This document shows, piece after piece, positions 1 to 60,488 of a stretch of DNA of 60,488 bases. The position numbers were made by a program, and so were the translations under genes. Numbering within the stretch: the stretch's first letter is position 1; each line of letters opens with the position of its first letter. Source of the stretch: Alphaproteobacteria bacterium (lineage in GTDB: Bacteria; Pseudomonadota; Alphaproteobacteria; Rhodospirillales; Rhodospirillaceae). The notes beneath the pieces are model-generated. The model worked only from the letters and a program-made list of their open reading frames with translations, searched no databases and was not told where the DNA came from. The stretch is from the NCBI GenBank assembly GCA_031362385.1, contig JANLSL010000273.1, positions 1 to 60,488 of the forward strand. Direction: 5' to 3'.

Positions 1-141
1 ACCATAGCGCACCTATTCCGCATGGCTGCATCTGTCCGCCCGGTTCGGAGAAAACATGCCAAGGCGCGACATGCCCCCGTCGAGCGAGAAATGCGACAGG
101 AGGCCCAAGACAATGACACACAACCCCAAGCCCGATGTGAC
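1..141. repeat. Terminal direct repeat, copy 1 (identical to 60348..60488)
   Basis: Exact 141-nt identity between window start and window end; offset 60,347 bp. Confidence 0.95.
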
Positions 142-8216: not shown

Positions 8217-8591
8217 CTACCCCCAAATTTCCACGACGGTTTGTTCGTTCCCGAAATTGATCGAAATCTCTGAGACAAGTGCTGCCATGTTCACCAGCCT
8301 TTCATCATCGATCAGTGTCACATTCGGGTTTGTTGAAGTGTAAGTCATTGCGAGCCCTGTTGACTCGCCTGTGATTGCCACCGAGAAGCGCCGCCGATCG
8401 GCTGAGAGCAACGTCTTGCGGGCATCGCAGATTGATTGTGCATCGGTCTGTGCTTCGAAATAGGTTTCAACGGGATCCTCATTGCGCCTTGCATCGTCGC
8501 CATATTTTGCGACGACACCGCTGTCCGGACCGTTTTTGACAATCCGGAAGCCCTGCGTGATGAATGCGATTTGGGCGGCGGTGGCTGGCAT
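8217..8591 (-). CDS. Hypothetical late protein (124 aa)
   Basis: TAATG coupling to the upstream gene. Confidence 0.65.
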   Translation of the reverse strand: MPATAAQIAFITQGFRIVKNGPDSGVVAKYGDDARRNEDPVETYFEAQTDAQSICDARKTLLSADRRRFSVAITGESTGLAMTYTSTNPNVTLIDDERLVNMAALVSEISINFGNEQTVVEIWG

Positions 8592-10528
8592 TAGTTTGGC
8601 CGCACAGGAACAGGCACCCTAGGCCGCGCTCCCCAATTATCGGGATACGCCTGCTTTAACTGCTTGCCGTCGCCAAGATCGGCCCCGCTGCAATTCAGCA
8701 ACTTGTCGATGCACCCAGCGTGCCAGCGTGCCATAACAGTGTCATTCCACGCGCCCCACCAATCTGTGTGAAACGTGGTTCCAGGCTTCATCGGCATCCC
8801 CGGCATAGCGTCGGATGACAGATGCCAGCTATTATGGGTGCCGTCCCAGACGCCCGAACGGTCAAGCGTGGCATCGGTGGTATACCAAGCGCCAAGCGTG
8901 AAGGCCGGAATAACATAGGGGTGTGATGTCGGGCATTGCGCGTAAGACTGCCCGATGTATTTGGCATAGGCAACGTGGCTACGGTGGTCGGCTGAATCAA
9001 GGTTCACTCCGTCCCAACAATCTGGCGCTGCAATGACCGCGCCTAACTTCGCGCCGGTGGGGCAATTCTTCGCCGCAATCACAATGTCCTTGTAGTGGCC
9101 GGGGATCGCGCCATTGCCGGTGCAATCGAAATAGCCCGAACCCGTTGGAGCCGATGCGCCGAGCATGTTGAAGCCGAAGATAAATCGAAGCCCGCGAGGT
9201 AGATCGACACAACCGCCCGTCGCTTGTTTAAGGCAATCAGCCGAGCCTTTTGGGAACCGCTTATAGTAGACGTTCACATGATCGGGTGGGACTACGAAGC
9301 CCTTGCCATCTTTCATGGCGGGCATCCAGTAGGCCGAGCGGTTTAAGGTGTTGCCGCATGACGAAGCACCGGTCTTTCTTAGACTGTCATAGGTTGAGTT
9401 TGCGTCCGCTCCGGTGTTTCCGAAAAACTGGTGGAGATGCGATTTGCCCGGTTGGTTTGGGTAGACAATAGGATCGTCATATTTGAGCATCCCAGCGAGG
9501 CCCGCATTGTCAACCGCCGCTTGACAGATCAGCCGGAACGCGCCGGGATTGCCGACATTGGGAGCGCCGCCGCTAGGAGGGATTGCACCCGTTCCCCATG
9601 CTGGTTGAAGCAAGGCCGCAACGTCCAAGCCGTCAGCAACAGGCGCTAGGCCGGTTGTCGGAATGTTCGGGTCAATCGGCGGTGGTGCTGGAGGAGGTGC
9701 CGGTGGCGGTGCGGGAGGTGGAAACACTGTGCCTGCGAGCAACGCGTCAACCTTGGCCTTGTAAACCGGCGCCATGATCGCTTGCCCCGCGTCTGTCGGG
9801 TGGACGCCATCAGCCTGCAAAGGCACTGTCACTGTGTCGAAGTCGTAAACCGCGTCAATGGTCGTCCCAACCGCTCCACGAAAACAGGCATTGGCCTCAA
9901 CCCGCTTTGTGGCGAAACCTTGGGCCAGATTGCCCGACGGCGCGACTTGTGGAAGGATCGTGCCAATCGCGACTTTCGTGCCGAGCGTCCGAATCGGCCC
10001 GACATAAGCGATAACCGCCGCGCAATACGCATTCCCGCTTGCGTAGGAACCAAGATCATTCGCGCCGATAAGCACTGTGAAAACCTTGGGGTTTGCGGCG
10101 ATGACTGTCGGTCTTCGGGTGATGAGATTATTGAGGCCGGAACCGCCAACGGCAAGCGATGTGAAGGCGGGGTTTGATGCAGCATAGAGGCCGGTATGCG
10201 AACCCGACCACTTAACCGATATGCTATCGCCTTCAGACACGACACCAGCGAGGGTTGCAGGCGGTGGCGGGCTTGGAGGGGGGGCAGGCGGTGGGCTAGG
10301 CGGTGGAGGAGGTGGCGGCACTTCCGCCGCCCTGATCGCCTTGTATTTGGCGTCAACCCGCATGGACGCAGCGGTTATTTTCGAGCCTGTTATATAGGCT
10401 TGCTGGCACATCACGTTGGTAGCGCCACACAAGGCCGCAGCGGATAACTCACGCGCATCCTGGGTAAAGTTTCCAGAGGCCAGCGCAGGCGCGGATACGG
10501 CGGCGAGGAGTAGGGCTAGGCGTTTCAT
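8591..10528 (-). CDS. Secreted two-domain protein: SGNH/GDSL hydrolase plus DUF1996 domain, with poly-proline linkers
   Basis: Signal peptide MKRLALLLAAVSAPALA; SGNH blocks GDSIS, GANDL, DGVHPT; linkers PPPPPPSPPPAPPPSPPPP and PPPAPPPAPPPAPPP; DUF1996 hallmarks DDPIVYPNQPGKSHLHQFFGN and RSAYWMPAM. Confidence 0.8.
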   Translation of the reverse strand: MKRLALLLAAVSAPALASGNFTQDARELSAAALCGATNVMCQQAYITGSKITAASMRVDAKYKAIRAAEVPPPPPPPSPPPAPPPSPPPPATLAGVVSEGDSISVKWSGSHTGLYAASNPAFTSLAVGGSGLNNLITRRPTVIAANPKVFTVLIGANDLGSYASGNAYCAAVIAYVGPIRTLGTKVAIGTILPQVAPSGNLAQGFATKRVEANACFRGAVGTTIDAVYDFDTVTVPLQADGVHPTDAGQAIMAPVYKAKVDALLAGTVFPPPAPPPAPPPAPPPIDPNIPTTGLAPVADGLDVAALLQPAWGTGAIPPSGGAPNVGNPGAFRLICQAAVDNAGLAGMLKYDDPIVYPNQPGKSHLHQFFGNTGADANSTYDSLRKTGASSCGNTLNRSAYWMPAMKDGKGFVVPPDHVNVYYKRFPKGSADCLKQATGGCVDLPRGLRFIFGFNMLGASAPTGSGYFDCTGNGAIPGHYKDIVIAAKNCPTGAKLGAVIAAPDCWDGVNLDSADHRSHVAYAKYIGQSYAQCPTSHPYVIPAFTLGAWYTTDATLDRSGVWDGTHNSWHLSSDAMPGMPMKPGTTFHTDWWGAWNDTVMARWHAGCIDKLLNCSGADLGDGKQLKQAYPDNWGARPRVPVPVRPN

Positions 10529-47781: not shown

Positions 47782-48095
47782 GCGCCGCCCGCAAAGCCGA
47801 TGCCTGTCGTCGCTCAGTTGAGGCTGGCAACGTGATCCACGACACCCGCTTTGATGCGGACCGCGAGCGCCGCGCCAAGATGCAGCGCGACTATGCGGAC
47901 GGCATTGCGGAAATTGGTGACAACCAGATGCTTGCCGACATGCACCAGCGCGATGAAACGCGCGGTGATGGCGTTCAAAAGGCTCGCGGCTGTTGGCTGG
48001 ACGGGCTGGCAACTGCGCTGATCGGCGGGATGCTGTTTGGGATATTTCTCTACGCCTTGCTGGCAGGGCCGGTCGACATGGTGGCGATGCGATGA
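47778..48095 (+). CDS. Hypothetical C-terminally membrane-anchored protein (105 aa)
   Basis: ATGA coupling; TM LATALIGGMLFGIFLYALLAG. Confidence 0.5.
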   Translation: MSAARKADACRRSVEAGNVIHDTRFDADRERRAKMQRDYADGIAEIGDNQMLADMHQRDETRGDGVQKARGCWLDGLATALIGGMLFGIFLYALLAGPVDMVAMR

Positions 48096-48487
48096 CCAGA
48101 GACGCCACCCCATACGCCCAGCGCCGCCAATGGGCCGCACCGGAAGGCTACGGCGTTGATGCCGAACATCCAACGGAAGGCTACTATCGCACGAAGTTGC
48201 GCATGGGCGGCGTTCAGGTCGGTGTCTATATCTGGTTCGGGCCACCGTTCGATCCAGACACCGGCGAGGAAATGGACCGCTCGCACAGGTGGCAAGCGGA
48301 AACGAATGGCCGCTACATCGAATTCGATCGCGTCTGGCCCAAGTGCGCCGGCGATCCGATCGATGTCGACGAATATGAATATCTGTCGAGCCTGCAAACG
48401 TGGGGCGAACAGCACGCTCCGCAAGGTCCGCACGCTCAGCCTCACAAGCCGATCGACCTGCTTTCCGCCCCCATTTTACTCATCTGA
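48092..48487 (+). CDS. Hypothetical protein (131 aa)
   Basis: ATGA coupling. Confidence 0.55.
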   Translation: MTRDATPYAQRRQWAAPEGYGVDAEHPTEGYYRTKLRMGGVQVGVYIWFGPPFDPDTGEEMDRSHRWQAETNGRYIEFDRVWPKCAGDPIDVDEYEYLSSLQTWGEQHAPQGPHAQPHKPIDLLSAPILLI

Positions 48488-48500
48488 AACCGGAGGATTT

Positions 48501-49433
48501 ATGACCACGATTGCCGCACCACGCCCAGCCGACGAATCGAACCCCCGCGCCGTGATGGGTTCGAATAACCCGCCTTTGGAAGAATCGATCCTGATGGATT
48601 TCGATGCCTCCCTGCGCGACCGTGAAGGCTTACTCGCTCGTATCGACGAGATGGAAAAGAAGGCTGCTGATGCCAAGCCGTGCACGAGTGACGAAGCGGC
48701 TGGCCGTATGGGGGATTTTATCAAGATGGCGAGCGCTGCCGCCAAGGTCGTGGAGGAAGAACGCGAAAAGTTGAACCGTCCGCTCCTGACAGCACAGCGC
48801 GCATTGAAGGGCCGTGCTGATTTTCATTCCACCCGCGCAATGGAGGCTGGTCGCAAGGTGCGCCGGTTGCTCGATCCCTATTTGGAAGAAAAAGAGCGTC
48901 AGCGTCGGGCAGAGATCGCGCGCCAGGCTGAGGTTGAACGGCAAGCGCAGTTGGAGCGCCAGCGGATTATCGACGAAGCCAATGCCGAGGCTGCGCGCGT
49001 TGCCGAGGTCGAGCGGAAGCGGTTGCAGGATATTGCCGATGCTGAGGCCGCCAAGGAGCGCGCCCGGTTGCAGGCTATTGAGGATGAGCGCGCTGCAGCG
49101 GAAGCCCGCGAGGCTGAGAAGGTCGAAGTGGTTGCCGAGGTCGTCGAAGTCGCGCCCGAGCCGGTTTTCGTACCTGAGCCCGAACCGGTTTACGTTGCCG
49201 CGGCGCCAGAGAAATCCGTCACCCGTGGAGAATACGGCACTGCTGTTTCGACCGTCGAGAATTGGGACGTGAAAGTCGTGAATATCAGGCAGGTGCCCGA
49301 TAATTTTTTGCGTCATCCGACCGTCATCGAAGCGCTTGAAAAGGTCATTCGCCCACTTGTGCGCGGCAAGAATGGGATGCGTGAGATTCGCGGATGCGAG
49401 ATTACATCCACGCTCGGCTCGCGGGTCCGGTGA
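48501..49433 (+). CDS. Hypothetical protein (310 aa) with a central charged coiled coil
   Basis: GGAGGA upstream of ATG 48501. Confidence 0.6.
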   Translation: MTTIAAPRPADESNPRAVMGSNNPPLEESILMDFDASLRDREGLLARIDEMEKKAADAKPCTSDEAAGRMGDFIKMASAAAKVVEEEREKLNRPLLTAQRALKGRADFHSTRAMEAGRKVRRLLDPYLEEKERQRRAEIARQAEVERQAQLERQRIIDEANAEAARVAEVERKRLQDIADAEAAKERARLQAIEDERAAAEAREAEKVEVVAEVVEVAPEPVFVPEPEPVYVAAAPEKSVTRGEYGTAVSTVENWDVKVVNIRQVPDNFLRHPTVIEALEKVIRPLVRGKNGMREIRGCEITSTLGSRVR

Positions 49434-49935: not shown

Positions 49936-50886
49936 ATGACACAGACCGCCCGCCAGACCGCTGTTGCCAAAGCTGATGACACAATCACTGCCAACGTCGC
50001 CAAGATTGAGACTGCCAAACGCCCAAGCGCGCTGCAAATGATGGCCCATCGCCTTCATATCGATGCGAACGTCCTCGAAAAGACGTTGCGCGCCACGGTT
50101 TTTGCCAAAGCCAGCCCGGAAGAGTTCGTGGCGCTAATGATCGTCGCGGAGTCTTACCGTCTCAATCCGTTGACCAAGGAAATCTATGCGTTCCCGGCGA
50201 AGGGCGGCGGCATTGTGCCAATCGTCTCGATCGATGGCTGGCTGCGCATCATCAACGAGCACCCGATGTTCGACGGCCTCGAACACAACGATATTCCAGA
50301 CCAGAACGGGAAATTGATTGCGGTCGAAGCGGTTATCTACCGGAAAGACCGCGCCCATCCGGTCAAGATCGTCGAATATCTTGAAGAGTGTCAGCAAAAC
50401 ACAGATCCATGGAAAAAGCTGCCAGCACGCATGTTGCGCCACAAGGCAACAATCCAGTGCGCTCGCTACGCTTTCGGGTTCAGTGGTGTCTACGACGAGG
50501 ATGATGGCCGCGCGATCGGCGACGTCCAGATGGGTGGTGATCTGACACCGGAGCCTGCACCGATGCGATCTGCCAACAAGGTCCTCACTGCAAACGGCAA
50601 GCGCACCCAGGAAGACGAAGAAACTGCCCGCGCGCTTGATGCCGGTTTTGATCCGCAGACCAGCGAAGTGCTGACGGCCCGCGAAGACGCGCAACATGGC
50701 GAACAAAACACCGGAGCCGAGATCAACATCTCCGATTGGGGCTACCGTCTCGAACAGGCGCCCATCATCGCTGACGTGCTTACAGTGGAGCGCGAATTCG
50801 AAGCGGCAAAGGCTCAAATGGACGGGGATGACGCGCGCAACGTCCAGAACTGGATTGAGACCGCGAAGGCGAGGTTCGGGAAGTGA
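49936..50886 (+). CDS. recT: RecT-family single-strand annealing protein
   Basis: ...EEFVALMIVAESYRLNPLTKEIYAFP..GGIVPIVSIDGW... typical RecT core. Confidence 0.85.
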   Translation: MTQTARQTAVAKADDTITANVAKIETAKRPSALQMMAHRLHIDANVLEKTLRATVFAKASPEEFVALMIVAESYRLNPLTKEIYAFPAKGGGIVPIVSIDGWLRIINEHPMFDGLEHNDIPDQNGKLIAVEAVIYRKDRAHPVKIVEYLEECQQNTDPWKKLPARMLRHKATIQCARYAFGFSGVYDEDDGRAIGDVQMGGDLTPEPAPMRSANKVLTANGKRTQEDEETARALDAGFDPQTSEVLTAREDAQHGEQNTGAEINISDWGYRLEQAPIIADVLTVEREFEAAKAQMDGDDARNVQNWIETAKARFGK

Positions 50887-51176
50887 TTCAGCAATCCGCC
50901 ACCAAGGCCGAGCGGCGCGCATTTGCCGTCACGAAACTGCGCAACAAGCGGGCGCGCGATGCACGTCTCCATGCCGAGCATAATACCGCGCAAGCACTCA
51001 GCAATATGCGCTCGTGGACCGATGCCAGCATTCGGAAAGCCAAGGGCGGCGATAACGTCAGCTACGGCTCTATCGCTTGCGGAAATCGCCGTGGTGGCGA
51101 ACATCATCACCAGCGCGAAATCGACCGACGTGCCCGACAAGCCGAGGCCAAAGCGGAAGTAAAAGCAAATGCGTAA
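50883..51176 (+). CDS. Hypothetical basic protein (97 aa)
   Basis: GTGA coupling. Confidence 0.45.
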   Translation: MIQQSATKAERRAFAVTKLRNKRARDARLHAEHNTAQALSNMRSWTDASIRKAKGGDNVSYGSIACGNRRGGEHHHQREIDRRARQAEAKAEVKANA

Positions 51177-51420
51177 AGCTGTGCTCCGCGCGGTCGATAC
51201 CGCTGAAACCCCTGAGTTGACCCCCAAGGAAGTTCAGGAAGCATGGCTTGCGAACTACCGAATGGAAGAGGCAGCTCTCGCGATCGCCGCTGAGGCCCGT
51301 CGCAGTCGGCCGCCGCTCAAATTCAAGGTTATGGAGAGCATGATGTTGTGGGGAATGACAGACAAGATGCTCGCCGAGAGGATCATCGTCGAACAAGCGA
51401 AGCAGTCCGATGCTGGATAA
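51169..51420 (+). CDS. Hypothetical protein (83 aa)
   Basis: Overlaps upstream stop. Confidence 0.5.
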   Translation: MRKAVLRAVDTAETPELTPKEVQEAWLANYRMEEAALAIAAEARRSRPPLKFKVMESMMLWGMTDKMLAERIIVEQAKQSDAG

Positions 51421-51718
51421 GATGGGCGTAGCTGATGCCGCACTGCTCGATATCGCAGACCGGATCACGAAGATGATCATCGAGCATGGCGGGCCCACCC
51501 TGCCAGCGTTCAGTGTCACCAGCCGGTTGAGCGAGGATATGGGCATCGACGCCATCGATCGCATGACGCTGGCCTGCACCATCGAAGAGACATTCGACGT
51601 GATGATCTCCGATGATGCGGTTGATGCGGCTGCGACAGTGCAGGATTTGATTGATGCTGTGGCGCTGGCTGTTGGGGAGAAGATGGCGGACGAAGCAGGG
51701 GGCGGGGAGCATGAGTAG
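51410..51718 (+). CDS. Acyl-carrier-protein-like protein lacking the phosphopantetheine serine
   Basis: SEDMGIDAIDRMTLACTIEETFDVMISDDAVDAAATVQDLIDAV versus E. coli AcpP [44 protein letters not shown]; DSL is replaced by DAI. Confidence 0.7.
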   Translation: MLDKMGVADAALLDIADRITKMIIEHGGPTLPAFSVTSRLSEDMGIDAIDRMTLACTIEETFDVMISDDAVDAAATVQDLIDAVALAVGEKMADEAGGGEHE

Positions 51719-51950
51719 TCTTCTACCAATTGATGCGCGCGAGATGGCGCGGAAGCCAACCGAGCTTTCGGACGATGAACTGGCCGCGTGCTGGAAGTGC
51801 CTCGCGGGCCAAATATCCTATCTCAATGCCGATGATTACGGCGGAGACTGGAAACTGGTTCCTCAATGGCGTCCCGCGCTCGATGTGCTCGATCTAGAGC
51901 ATGATCGCAGGGGCATCCCGCGTCCGAGCCGTTCGGGGTTTCTACTATGA
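51711..51950 (+). CDS. Hypothetical protein (79 aa)
   Basis: ATG overlapping the upstream 3' end. Confidence 0.5.
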   Translation: MSSLLPIDAREMARKPTELSDDELAACWKCLAGQISYLNADDYGGDWKLVPQWRPALDVLDLEHDRRGIPRPSRSGFLL

Positions 51951-52099
51951 TCCTCACCCTCACCATCATCGCCTTCCTCTGGCTCGGCACCGGCATCTAT
52001 TTCGTGACGCACTCGCGCTCGCGGGGCTGGAAGGCTGACGTCCTGTTCATCTTCACATGGCCGATCAATGTGTTTCTGGATTGGAGGGATGGGCGGTAA
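51947..52099 (+). CDS. 50-aa two-TM membrane peptide
   Basis: MILTLTIIAFLWLGTGIYFVTHSRSRGWKADVLFIFTWPINVFLDWRDGR; ATGA and TAATG coupling; below the ORF-track cutoff. Confidence 0.45.
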   Translation: MILTLTIIAFLWLGTGIYFVTHSRSRGWKADVLFIFTWPINVFLDWRDGR

Positions 52100-52569
52100 T
52101 GGCCTACGCCTCCAAAACAGAAGTGCCGGTCGTTAAGACCAAGGCCGAGATCGAAGCCATCTGCGAACGCTATGGCGCTGGCCAATTCCTTTCGGGATGG
52201 AAAGAGGATTGCGCCATCATCGGCTTCACGATGGCAGGGCGGCAAATCCGCTTCATCCTGCCAATGCCAGGAAAGAGCGACAAGGCGTTCACTCACTACA
52301 AGCAGCATGGTTATGAATGCGTGCGCAAGGAAACCGCCGCAATCGCCCTTTGGGAGCAAGCCTGCCGGTCGCGCTGGCGGGCACTTTTGCTGGTCATCAA
52401 GGCCAAGTTGGAAGCGGTAGAGATCGGAATCAGCACGGTTGAAAACGAATTTCTCGCCAACATCGTCATGCCAAACGGGCAGACGGTGGGCGACATGGCG
52501 AGGGAGCCAATCGCTATCGCATACCAGAGCGGGCAGATGGGCAATTTGCTGCCGGACTATTCGCAATGA
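52099..52569 (+). CDS. Hypothetical protein (156 aa)
   Basis: TAATG coupling. Confidence 0.6.
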   Translation: MAYASKTEVPVVKTKAEIEAICERYGAGQFLSGWKEDCAIIGFTMAGRQIRFILPMPGKSDKAFTHYKQHGYECVRKETAAIALWEQACRSRWRALLLVIKAKLEAVEIGISTVENEFLANIVMPNGQTVGDMAREPIAIAYQSGQMGNLLPDYSQ

Positions 52570-52796: not shown

Positions 52797-53032
52797 CCGA
52801 GGAAGAGTTCCGCAGCGGCACTTTGGCGAATGGCGAGCGGCTTATGCAGCATGTCGATCATCGCGCTTCGATCATCGCATGGCTTTGTGTCGAAGCTGCT
52901 AAGCGCCAAGGCGTTGAAAGGCGGGTTTTGAGGGTTGCGGCAGATGGCGTTCGCGCGGAGTTGGATAGACAGGAAACACCTTCACCGGGCGGCAGGGAGT
53001 CTAATAAATTCCCTGCCGATGGTGCGCGGTGA
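52793..53032 (+). CDS. Hypothetical protein (79 aa)
   Basis: ATGA coupling. Confidence 0.5.
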   Translation: MTEEEFRSGTLANGERLMQHVDHRASIIAWLCVEAAKRQGVERRVLRVAADGVRAELDRQETPSPGGRESNKFPADGAR

Positions 53033-53313
53033 GTGAGCCGCTGCTCTTGACGGAAACGCAGGCGAGCGAGCAATTGAACTTGTGCGAGCGGACGTTGCGC
53101 AAGGCCAGACGCGATGGTTCATTGACCTATCGCTTGTATGGCCGCGCGGTGCGCTACACGATGGAAGACCTTACACGATTCGTTGAGGGGATGCAGCAAT
53201 GTCACTCTACAAGCGCGCCGGAACGCCGTTCTACTGGTTCGACTTCACGGTCGCAGGTGTTCGACATCGAGGCTCTACGGGCTGCGCGAAACTCTCGGAC
53301 GCGAAGGAAGTAG
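53029..53313 (+). CDS. Excisionase-like HTH protein, 3' end overlapping int
   Basis: LLTETQASEQLNLCERTLRKARRDGSLTYRLYGRAVRYTMEDL; GTGA coupling; 115-nt overlap with the integrase start. Confidence 0.55.
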   Translation: MSEPLLLTETQASEQLNLCERTLRKARRDGSLTYRLYGRAVRYTMEDLTRFVEGMQQCHSTSAPERRSTGSTSRSQVFDIEALRAARNSRTRRK

Positions 53314-54224
53314 AACGGGATGAACGCGCAAAGGCCAAGAAACAGCCGCGATACGGTGACAGGTGGAAAGTCCGCAACGTGCTTGGCTCCTACTGGAATG
53401 ACCATGCCGTCAATCTGCGTTCGTCCAAGACAATCGAATATCAGATCCTTGAACTGTCTGCGGGCTTGGGCGCTGACATGCTTGTAGAGCGCATCACACC
53501 CGCCACCCTGCTTGCCTATCGTGCCAGACGGCGCGGGCATGGCTTGGGCGAAAGTTCGATCAACCGGGAACTGCACTTGCTGCGCGCAGCCCTCACACAC
53601 GCCGCCCAGGTGCATTGTCAGAGCGTTCCGAACATCCCTTGGGCAAAGATGACCGTGAGCGAACCAGCGGGCCGCACGCGCTTCCTGACGCGGGAAGAAT
53701 TTGACCGCTTGATTGCGCATTGCCATGCATCGCTAAAGCCGATCATCTGGTGCGCTGTCACAACTGGCCTTCGCAAGCAAAACATCCTGACGATGGACTG
53801 GCAACAGGTGCGCTTGAACGCCAAGTTGATTACAGTGATGGTCAAGGGCAACAAGCCCCATGCTGTCAGGATCGTGCCGCAGTTGATGGTGTGGCTTTCA
53901 CCCGTCAAGGAATCGGAGCGCAGGGGCCGCGTATTCGATCGCGAGAATTTCGAGAAGCGTTGGCGCGCGGCGCTTGCGGAGGCAGGGATTGCAAACTTCC
54001 GCTTTCACGATCTGCGGCATACCTTCGCGTCATGGGCGAGGCAGGCAGGCGCGGGGATAGAGGATATTTGCGAGGCGCTGGCGCACTCCGATATTTCGAT
54101 GTCGATGCGCTATGCCCATATCAAACCGGACAGCGAAAACACGGCATTCGACAAGGTTTCAGAGGCTCTGGCGTCACAATCTGCGGCACAGTTGGTCGAA
54201 AATGAACGGAAAACCGCCGCATGA
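53199..54224 (+). CDS. int: Tyrosine integrase
   Basis: MSLYKRAGTPFYWFDFTVAGVRHRGSTG...; catalytic region HDLRHTFASWA...LAHSDISMSMRYAHI. Confidence 0.9.
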   Translation: MSLYKRAGTPFYWFDFTVAGVRHRGSTGCAKLSDAKEVERDERAKAKKQPRYGDRWKVRNVLGSYWNDHAVNLRSSKTIEYQILELSAGLGADMLVERITPATLLAYRARRRGHGLGESSINRELHLLRAALTHAAQVHCQSVPNIPWAKMTVSEPAGRTRFLTREEFDRLIAHCHASLKPIIWCAVTTGLRKQNILTMDWQQVRLNAKLITVMVKGNKPHAVRIVPQLMVWLSPVKESERRGRVFDRENFEKRWRAALAEAGIANFRFHDLRHTFASWARQAGAGIEDICEALAHSDISMSMRYAHIKPDSENTAFDKVSEALASQSAAQLVENERKTAA

Positions 54225-60293: not shown

Positions 60294-60463
60294 TGGCTGT
60301 TCACACTTGTATCGCTAACCCATGTCCTATTTGCCACCCGCAATACTACCATAGCGCACCTATTCCGCATGGCTGCATCTGTCCGCCCGGTTCGGAGAAA
60401 ACATGCCAAGGCGCGACATGCCCCCGTCGAGCGAGAAATGCGACAGGAGGCCCAAGACAATGA
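60293..60463 (+). CDS. Cys-rich small protein (56 aa) spanning the contig junction
   Basis: AAGGAGGAGAG upstream; TGATG coupling; MAVHTCIANPCPICHPQYYHSAPIPHGCICPPGSEKTCQGATCPRRARNATGGPRQ; its 3' part is duplicated at 1..116. Confidence 0.5.
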   Translation: MAVHTCIANPCPICHPQYYHSAPIPHGCICPPGSEKTCQGATCPRRARNATGGPRQ

Positions 60464-60488
60464 CACACAACCCCAAGCCCGATGTGAC
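60348..60488. repeat. Terminal direct repeat, copy 2 (identical to 1..141)
   Basis: Exact identity with the window start. Confidence 0.95.

Follow-up and report, generated by a model that had tools for sequence, protein, structure and literature searches.

The window (the whole 60,488-nucleotide stretch of DNA analysed here) begins with a 141-bp segment (1..141) that is identical to its last 141 bp (60348-60488), an assembly overlap indicating that it is a closed phage genome of 60,347 bp rather than a prophage with host flanks. A prophage bounded by att-type direct repeats was also considered; only a 14-bp chance match was found, and this possibility was superseded by the closed circle. The genome carries genes for a terminase, a portal protein, a replication initiator, a CI-like repressor, an exonuclease-like protein, RecT, an excisionase (Xis) and an integrase (Int), with an HNH endonuclease and a C5 methylase coming after the integrase. 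The phage is temperate, was binned with an alphaproteobacterium-like MAG, and has a portal protein at most 36% identical to that of any phage in INPHARED. The open reading frame (ORF) at 51410-51718, the subject of this work, had been attributed to a phage in an earlier note, and the closed temperate genome bears this out. It encodes a protein resembling acyl carrier proteins (ACPs) and lies in a run of overlapping, translationally coupled genes that reads RecT, 97 aa, 83 aa, ACP-like, 79 aa, 50 aa, 170 aa, 76 aa, 79 aa, Xis and Int. The features of this region are as follows.

48510..49433, + strand: exonuclease-like protein (phrog_10477), upstream of RecT
49936..50886, + strand: RecT/Bet-like single-strand annealing protein, in the operon of the ACP-like gene
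50883..51176, + strand: 97-aa basic protein, uncharacterised, coupled between RecT and the 83-aa gene
51169..51420, + strand: 83-aa protein, uncharacterised; its 3′ end overlaps the start of the ACP-like gene by 11 nt
51410..51718, + strand: ACP-fold protein of 102 aa (pI 4.05; Ser replaced by Ala48), with ATG start and TAG stop
51551..51553, + strand: GCC codon of Ala48, equivalent to the Ser36 phosphopantetheine site of AcpP
51711..51950, + strand: 79-aa protein, uncharacterised; its start overlaps the stop of the ACP-like gene by 8 nt
51947..52099, + strand: 50-aa hydrophobic micro-protein, in ATGA overlap with the 79-aa gene
52057..52569, + strand: 170-aa protein of phrog_17260 (function not assigned; E=5e-55), three genes downstream of the ACP-like gene
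53029..53313, + strand: excisionase-type HTH_17 protein
53199..54224, + strand: tyrosine integrase, the last gene of the co-directional block

The layout of the lambda pL operon resembles this exo-RecT...xis-int run, and the corresponding region of lambda encodes proteins that modulate the host, among them Gam, Kil and CIII. The description "early operon" that had been given to the locus is reasonable on account of this likeness, and stands as a fair guess from gene order.

The ACP-like ORF matched the PP-binding family PF00550 with 33 bits (E=7.4e-8), above the Pfam gathering cut-off of 20.8 bits, and the PHROG profile phrog_5934 ("acyl carrier protein") with E=2.4e-12. Seven NCBIfam models of housekeeping ACPs also matched (E 1e-10 to 1e-6), every one of them below its equivalog cut-off; TIGR00517, for example, scored 39.1 bits and did not reach its cut-off of 70.45. 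A phmmer search against all PDB chains returned 114 ACP chains, headed by the Brucella ACP 2n57 (E=4e-8), and the best PDB alignments ran over residues 13-84 as a single stretch without gaps. The gapless alignment with 2n57 sets GIDAIDRM of the window protein over GADSLDTV, which places Ala48 at the position of AcpP Ser36. An exhaustive search through 1.8 billion representative proteins supplied 129 single-domain homologues, and in 120 of them this attachment column is Ser. We looked for a different serine aligned at the site and found none, so that the reading stands; likewise, the alignment of the ACP-like orthologues shows no other Ser or Thr that is conserved close to where helix II begins.

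The four-helix ACP fold expected in the earlier note was recovered with AlphaFold2 and Foldseek. Modelling with AlphaFold2 on 29 relatives (mean pLDDT 85.9) put helices at residues 2-27, 48-62, 68-73 and 77-97; as in ACPs, helix II begins at residue 48, and Ala48 belongs to its first turn. The best 50 Foldseek matches to this model in the PDB were ACPs exclusively (target-normalised TM 0.63-0.86, above 0.75 for most; rmsd 1.6-2.2 Å for most). An earlier model from four sequences (pLDDT 70) had the same fold and matched phage ACPs in BFVD. The ORF at 51410-51718 is confirmed as a true member of the PP-binding superfamily with its serine replaced, far beyond chance; the homology to ACPs, the Ser-to-Ala replacement and the resulting impossibility of phosphopantetheinylation at the canonical site, all claimed beforehand from the DNA, proved correct. 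Since the serine that holds the cofactor is absent, the protein is very probably unable to carry fatty acids. It lacks the defining feature of a functional carrier, and the annotation "acyl carrier protein" is therefore inappropriate.

Relative to bacterial AcpP (PF00550, TIGR00517; 2n57, 1l0h, 1f80), above all in its apo form, the window protein shares the four-helix fold at a TM of 0.8-0.86, aligned without gaps over helices I-IV, and an acidic helix II/III face with a pI of about 4. It differs from AcpP in having Ala for Ser36 and hence no 4′-phosphopantetheine attachment, in 12 additional residues at the N-terminus and a longer helix IV, in M, A and C replacing V40, V43 and M44, and in its place in a phage operon for recombination/integration that is devoid of fab genes. 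In the gapless alignment to 1l0h the acidic docking face is kept: in helix II, D47 corresponds to D35, D50 to D38 and E59/E60 to E47/E48, and beyond it D68/D69 correspond to D56/E57, D72 to E60 and D82 to D70.

With 22 acidic and 6 basic residues and a pI of 4.05, the protein could be taken for a Gam-like acidic DNA mimic or nuclease inhibitor belonging to the recombination module, which would shield phage DNA ends or recombination intermediates from AddAB/RecBCD-type or restriction/defence nucleases. The gene lies just downstream of the exonuclease-like and RecT genes, and in a relative (locus L150, see below) within the RecT operon; in lambda and P22, anti-RecBCD genes occupy a position near the exo/RecT genes. 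However, all ACPs are equally acidic (the host AcpP has a pI of 4.21), so that charge is uninformative here, and the confinement of the best 50 Foldseek matches to ACPs also counts against this explanation. The PADLOC scan found no defence-system family for the protein, its library consisting of defence rather than anti-defence proteins. We know of no DNA mimic with the ACP fold, and consider a role of this kind quite unlikely.

No fatty-acid or polyketide synthesis genes had been seen near the ORF, and this was substantiated: its neighbours are RecT, small uncharacterised proteins, Xis and Int. Ketoacyl synthase (PF00109), AMP-binding (PF00501) and PPTase (PF01648) families had no match on the phage contig (C624), and all matches of the bin to the ketoacyl synthase, AMP-binding and ACPS families lie on other contigs. 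One of these carries a fabD-fabG-acpP-fabF operon, which encodes the genuine AcpP of the bin, and the only AcpS-type PPTase of the bin is on a third contig. The adjoining 83-aa and 79-aa proteins had no match to Complex1_LYR or any other Pfam family, and a Pfam search found no LYR-family match among the neighbours of the gene; a word-indexed search for homologues of the 83-aa protein returned only itself. A single lipid-related enzyme domain was seen in the phage: a GDSL/SGNH lipase-acylhydrolase domain, joined to DUF1996 in a 645-aa protein whose gene (8591-10528, - strand) closes the late gene block. This gene is a long way from the ACP-like gene and runs in the opposite direction.

Orthologues of the ACP-like gene were found in four further lineages.

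Locus L004 (protein P0002): 70% identical to the window protein; Ala (GCC) at the cofactor site
Loci L005/L006 (P0003): 58% identical; Asn (AAC) at the site
Locus L150 and six other contigs (P0004): 63% identical; Asn (AAC) at the site
L161:1405-1695, an unlisted gene: 58% identical; Ser (AGC) at the site

The family is very rare: its five lineages all come from metagenome assemblies, and its members were present only on a few contigs assembled from public read sets. No family member was found by tblastn in INPHARED (50,697 phage records), by pattern-based scans of IMG/VR, the GTDB species representatives and JGI metagenome contigs, or in 119 species genomes of the host's family; the database scans gave only ordinary AcpPs or generic ACPs with at most 42% identity. 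All ACP-like orthologues share an N-terminal MLDK, and each overlaps the gene upstream of it. Across the five lineages the residue at the cofactor site is Ala twice, Asn twice and Ser once, and in the nearest sister family (MTNRAH...) it is Ser in three members and Gln in two. A tree of the family and this sister (families A and D) joins the two with support of 91/92; its inner branches are not resolved, nor is the order in which Ser was lost. Ser has been replaced by three different residues, so at least three substitutions must have taken place.

The residue between D47 and I/L49 is among the most variable of helix II, in a protein with 16 invariant columns over the family and its sister. 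D47, M52, A55, C56, E59, F62, V64, D68, D69, D72, V77, D82 and A83 are invariant in all ten sequences, and D50 and E60 nearly so. Pairwise dN/dS within the ACP-like family is 0.21-0.36, and falls to 0.06 between the two Asn forms at a dS of 1.2; the reading frame is intact across the five lineages, which have diverged to a dS of 0.9-1.7. The A/A/N/N/S pattern at the site, the invariant flanks and the dN/dS of 0.06-0.36 together indicate that the serine is dispensable and that the serine-less forms are under selection. Since one orthologue retains Ser, the function of the family would be independent of the cofactor in either state. In the L161 operon two ACP-like paralogues are present, P0157 (420-680, Gln at the site) and the Ser-bearing orthologue (1405-1698); genes of 173 aa and 73 aa separate them, and a DUF5131 gene then follows.

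The loss of the catalytic Ser and the rarity of the family (absent from INPHARED and from the IMG/VR, GTDB representative and JGI scans) would suit a decaying remnant, now functionless, of an ACP gene once used in auxiliary metabolism. Against this, the frame is intact in lineages separated by a dS of 0.9-1.7 with a dN/dS of 0.06-0.36, the 16 columns are invariant across two families, and both the N-terminal MLDK and the translational coupling are conserved, which makes a remnant barely credible. The same alignment bears on whether the protein might still be a carrier that is loaded at a non-canonical residue of helix II, namely the thiol of Cys56 or Thr/Ser53: Cys56 does not vary among the ten sequences of families A and D, which have only Thr or Ser at position 53. 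The "AC" of helix II, however, is also present in relatives that have the canonical Ser, so that Cys56 is no substitute for it, and the phage is devoid of a loading enzyme. We know of no PPTase that modifies a residue inside helix II, and regard a cryptic carrier as very unlikely.

The gene neighbourhoods of the relatives fall into two arrangements. In L004 and L161 the order is a 167/173-aa gene, a 73/80-aa gene, the ACP-like gene and DUF5131; the 73/80-aa genes, directly upstream of the ACP-like gene, are homologues of the 83-aa gene of the window (47-59% identity), so that this upstream gene of 73-83 aa is co-conserved with the ACP-like gene in three of the five lineages. In L005/L006 and L150/L151 the order is a HerA/DUF87-type ATPase, the ACP-like gene, a 114/115-aa gene and DUF5131, and L150 also has RecT and HU on the upstream side. 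The ATPase of this Asn-type lineage (L005:1-1476; L150:8326-10011) is a protein of 561 aa with two C-terminal winged-helix-like repeats, and its gene overlaps the ACP-like gene from directly upstream. A DUF5131 gene thus lies downstream of the ACP-like gene, immediately or one gene on, in four of the five lineages. DUF5131 (Gp37/Gp68) is a member of the radical-SAM superfamily (PMC9477430).

No phage neighbour gene is conserved in all five lineages. Between the window and 13.7 kb of L150, the only shared proteins are the ACP-like protein and the product of window 47993-48487 (+ strand). The latter is an uncharacterised 164-aa ORF upstream of the exonuclease-like gene; its counterpart at L150:5122-5532 is 34% identical over 101 aa.

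These neighbourhoods raise the possibility, which we hold tentatively, that the protein is a small acidic docking module, an adaptor or subunit that would stabilise or regulate a phage-encoded complex; its partner might be the 73-83-aa upstream protein or, in the relatives, DUF5131 or the HerA/DUF87-type ATPase. The 11-nt overlap with the 83-aa gene and the homologues directly upstream in L004 and L161 are in keeping with such a role, as are the DUF5131 genes adjacent or one gene downstream in L004, L005/L006, L150/L151 and L161, those that L074 and L159 carry no more than 1.5 kb from the gene of a Gly-type sister family, and the clade-specific invariant residues on helix II (M52, A55, C56). 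A precedent for a cofactor-less ACP as a structural partner is the mACP of Plasmodium falciparum, which is without phosphopantetheine, yet essential, and stabilises Isd11-Nfs1 by binding (PMC8547962). Like this mACP, the window family keeps the ACP fold, under selection, despite the loss of Ser; the Plasmodium protein differs in being eukaryotic and organellar, with a known LYR-motif partner. On the other side, DUF5131 is absent from the window phage and from its whole bin, and the 83-aa gene is missing from the L005/L150 lineage. A PP-binding gene was present within 4 kb on either side of only three of 80 DUF5131 loci and in only five of 50 whole viral contigs bearing DUF5131, so that DUF5131 has no general need of an ACP. 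DUF5131 and the 83-aa gene are each missing from some lineages, and the ACP-like gene thus persists with changing neighbours.

Other phages, too, encode ACP look-alikes without the serine, and the window family is not unique in this respect. A second such phage family, in which the site is occupied by Gly (P0163, P0165-P0168) or Ala (P0032) within the motif L-D-G-L-D-R-Q, sits in early operons of temperate phages, at most 1.5 kb from a DUF5131 radical-SAM gene; its loci are the following.

L074:6191-6421: second serine-less phage family
L159:7001-7243: second serine-less phage family
L160:3734-3976: second serine-less phage family

A third family (P0148, P0158-P0162), with Leu or Phe at the Ser position, is found in defence islands, at the head of a conserved cassette at three loci.

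L157:7001-13668: third-family cassette
L163:6364-13112: third-family cassette
L164:2255-9003: third-family cassette

The cassette encodes, in order, the ACP-like protein, a KR-type short-chain dehydrogenase (SDR), a radical-SAM-like protein of 310-343 aa and a protein of 159-161 aa. It ends with a giant SIR2_2-NACHT-FGE-sulfatase protein (L157, L164) and then a methyltransferase; in L163 a 634-aa protein with only the FGE-sulfatase part takes the place of the giant protein. The SIR2 part matches ThsA/LmuA/Dsr models, and in L157 and L158 the cassette is directly beside ZacABC, a system listed in PADLOC. The cassette has the look of a defence-type system that is not yet described. A search of the literature turned up no account of phage ACPs without the serine or of anti-defence ACPs.

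Known phage ACPs of the phrog_5934 type include Caulobacter phage CcrMagneto gp204, those of Achromobacter phage Motura and Olleya phage Harreka_1, and Erythrobacter phage vB_EliS-R6L ORF32. They resemble the window gene in being small stand-alone ACP-fold genes in an early or accessory context with no lipid enzymes nearby; three cultured-phage ACPs keep D-S-L, whereas the window protein does not. The function of phage-encoded ACPs has been described as unclear (PMC5463345, PMC8224337). Another known case is PhiSH19 AER70228.1, from the Ackermannviridae (Vi01-like), a phage ACP homologue that is annotated as a carrier and has no Ser, its motif being G-D-D-L-D. PhiSH19 belongs to an unrelated lineage of virulent jumbo-type phages of enterobacteria, and its protein differs in having Asp for Ser and a 45-residue N-terminal insertion, whereas the site in the window family varies among S, A and N. 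The PhiSH19 gene (L173:856-1188; JN126049 80355-80687, minus strand) reads DLGGDDLDAIEIVMELEEEF, with Asp at the Ser site; the gene table of the 2011 PhiSH19 genome paper lists it as a plain acyl carrier protein with a PP-binding domain.

Taken together, the replacements are Ala/Asn in the window family, Gln in its sister, Gly/Ala in the second phage family, Leu/Phe in the defence islands and Asp in the Ackermannviridae, and the radical-SAM-type neighbours are DUF5131 in the phage families and the SDR plus radical-SAM-like gene in the defence-island family. It is conceivable, though rather unlikely, that these proteins form a so far unrecognised and recurrent functional class of "apo-ACP adaptors", spread over phages and defence islands by repeated loss of Ser, in which the ACP fold may partner the radical-SAM-type enzymes themselves or the Fe-S/ACP-dependent host machinery that they need. 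If true, such adaptors would be a viral counterpart of the mitochondrial ACP-LYRM-Nfs1 arrangement.

These data suggest that (i) the ACP-like protein is very probably a binding protein and not a carrier, since it keeps the ACP fold and the acidic face under purifying selection, has no serine and is encoded in a phage that has no carrier-using enzymes; and (ii) it is plausibly, if still tentatively, an unloadable decoy occupying the ACP-docking site of a host protein. According to the latter reading, the phage gene would make a permanently apo look-alike of acyl carrier protein that acts solely through binding. The look-alike would occupy the basic docking site at which a host protein ordinarily receives AcpP and, as a competitor that can never be loaded, would serve as a decoy while the phage develops. 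That no phage neighbour gene is common to all five lineages fits a host target, and the position among small accessory genes between RecT and xis-int fits a host decoy. Apo-ACP inhibits glycerol-3-phosphate acyltransferase more than holo-ACP does, and it brings growth of E. coli to a stop (reviewed in PMC3896788). SpoT, which the earlier note had included among the possible targets of a decoy, is an unlikely one, because it was reported in the same review not to bind apo-ACP (PMC3896788).

Several observations count against a host decoy. The protein is only ∼31-33% identical to the host AcpP, and M52, A55 and C56, in place of V, V and M in AcpP, suggest a specialised partner rather than faithful mimicry. 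The synteny with the 73-83-aa gene and DUF5131 suggests phage-encoded partners. Finally, some members of the family need not be "dead" mimics, because the L161 orthologue retains Ser and modification is possible there.

Genes for phage "acyl carrier proteins" are routinely annotated as auxiliary metabolic genes (AMGs). For the genes described here the label "lipid metabolism AMG" would be wrong, as their job is argued not to need the cofactor. The particular value of the family is its natural variation among Ser, Ala and Asn: the orthologues amount to a natural experiment in which the residue at the cofactor site changes and the docking helix is invariant, and Ser/Ala swaps combined with pull-downs offer a simple handle for finding the partner. 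If the target is a host ACP-dependent enzyme, the family would represent a new form of phage control over host lipid or cofactor metabolism; if it is a phage radical-SAM enzyme, the family would provide a first clue to DUF5131, a widespread phage family.
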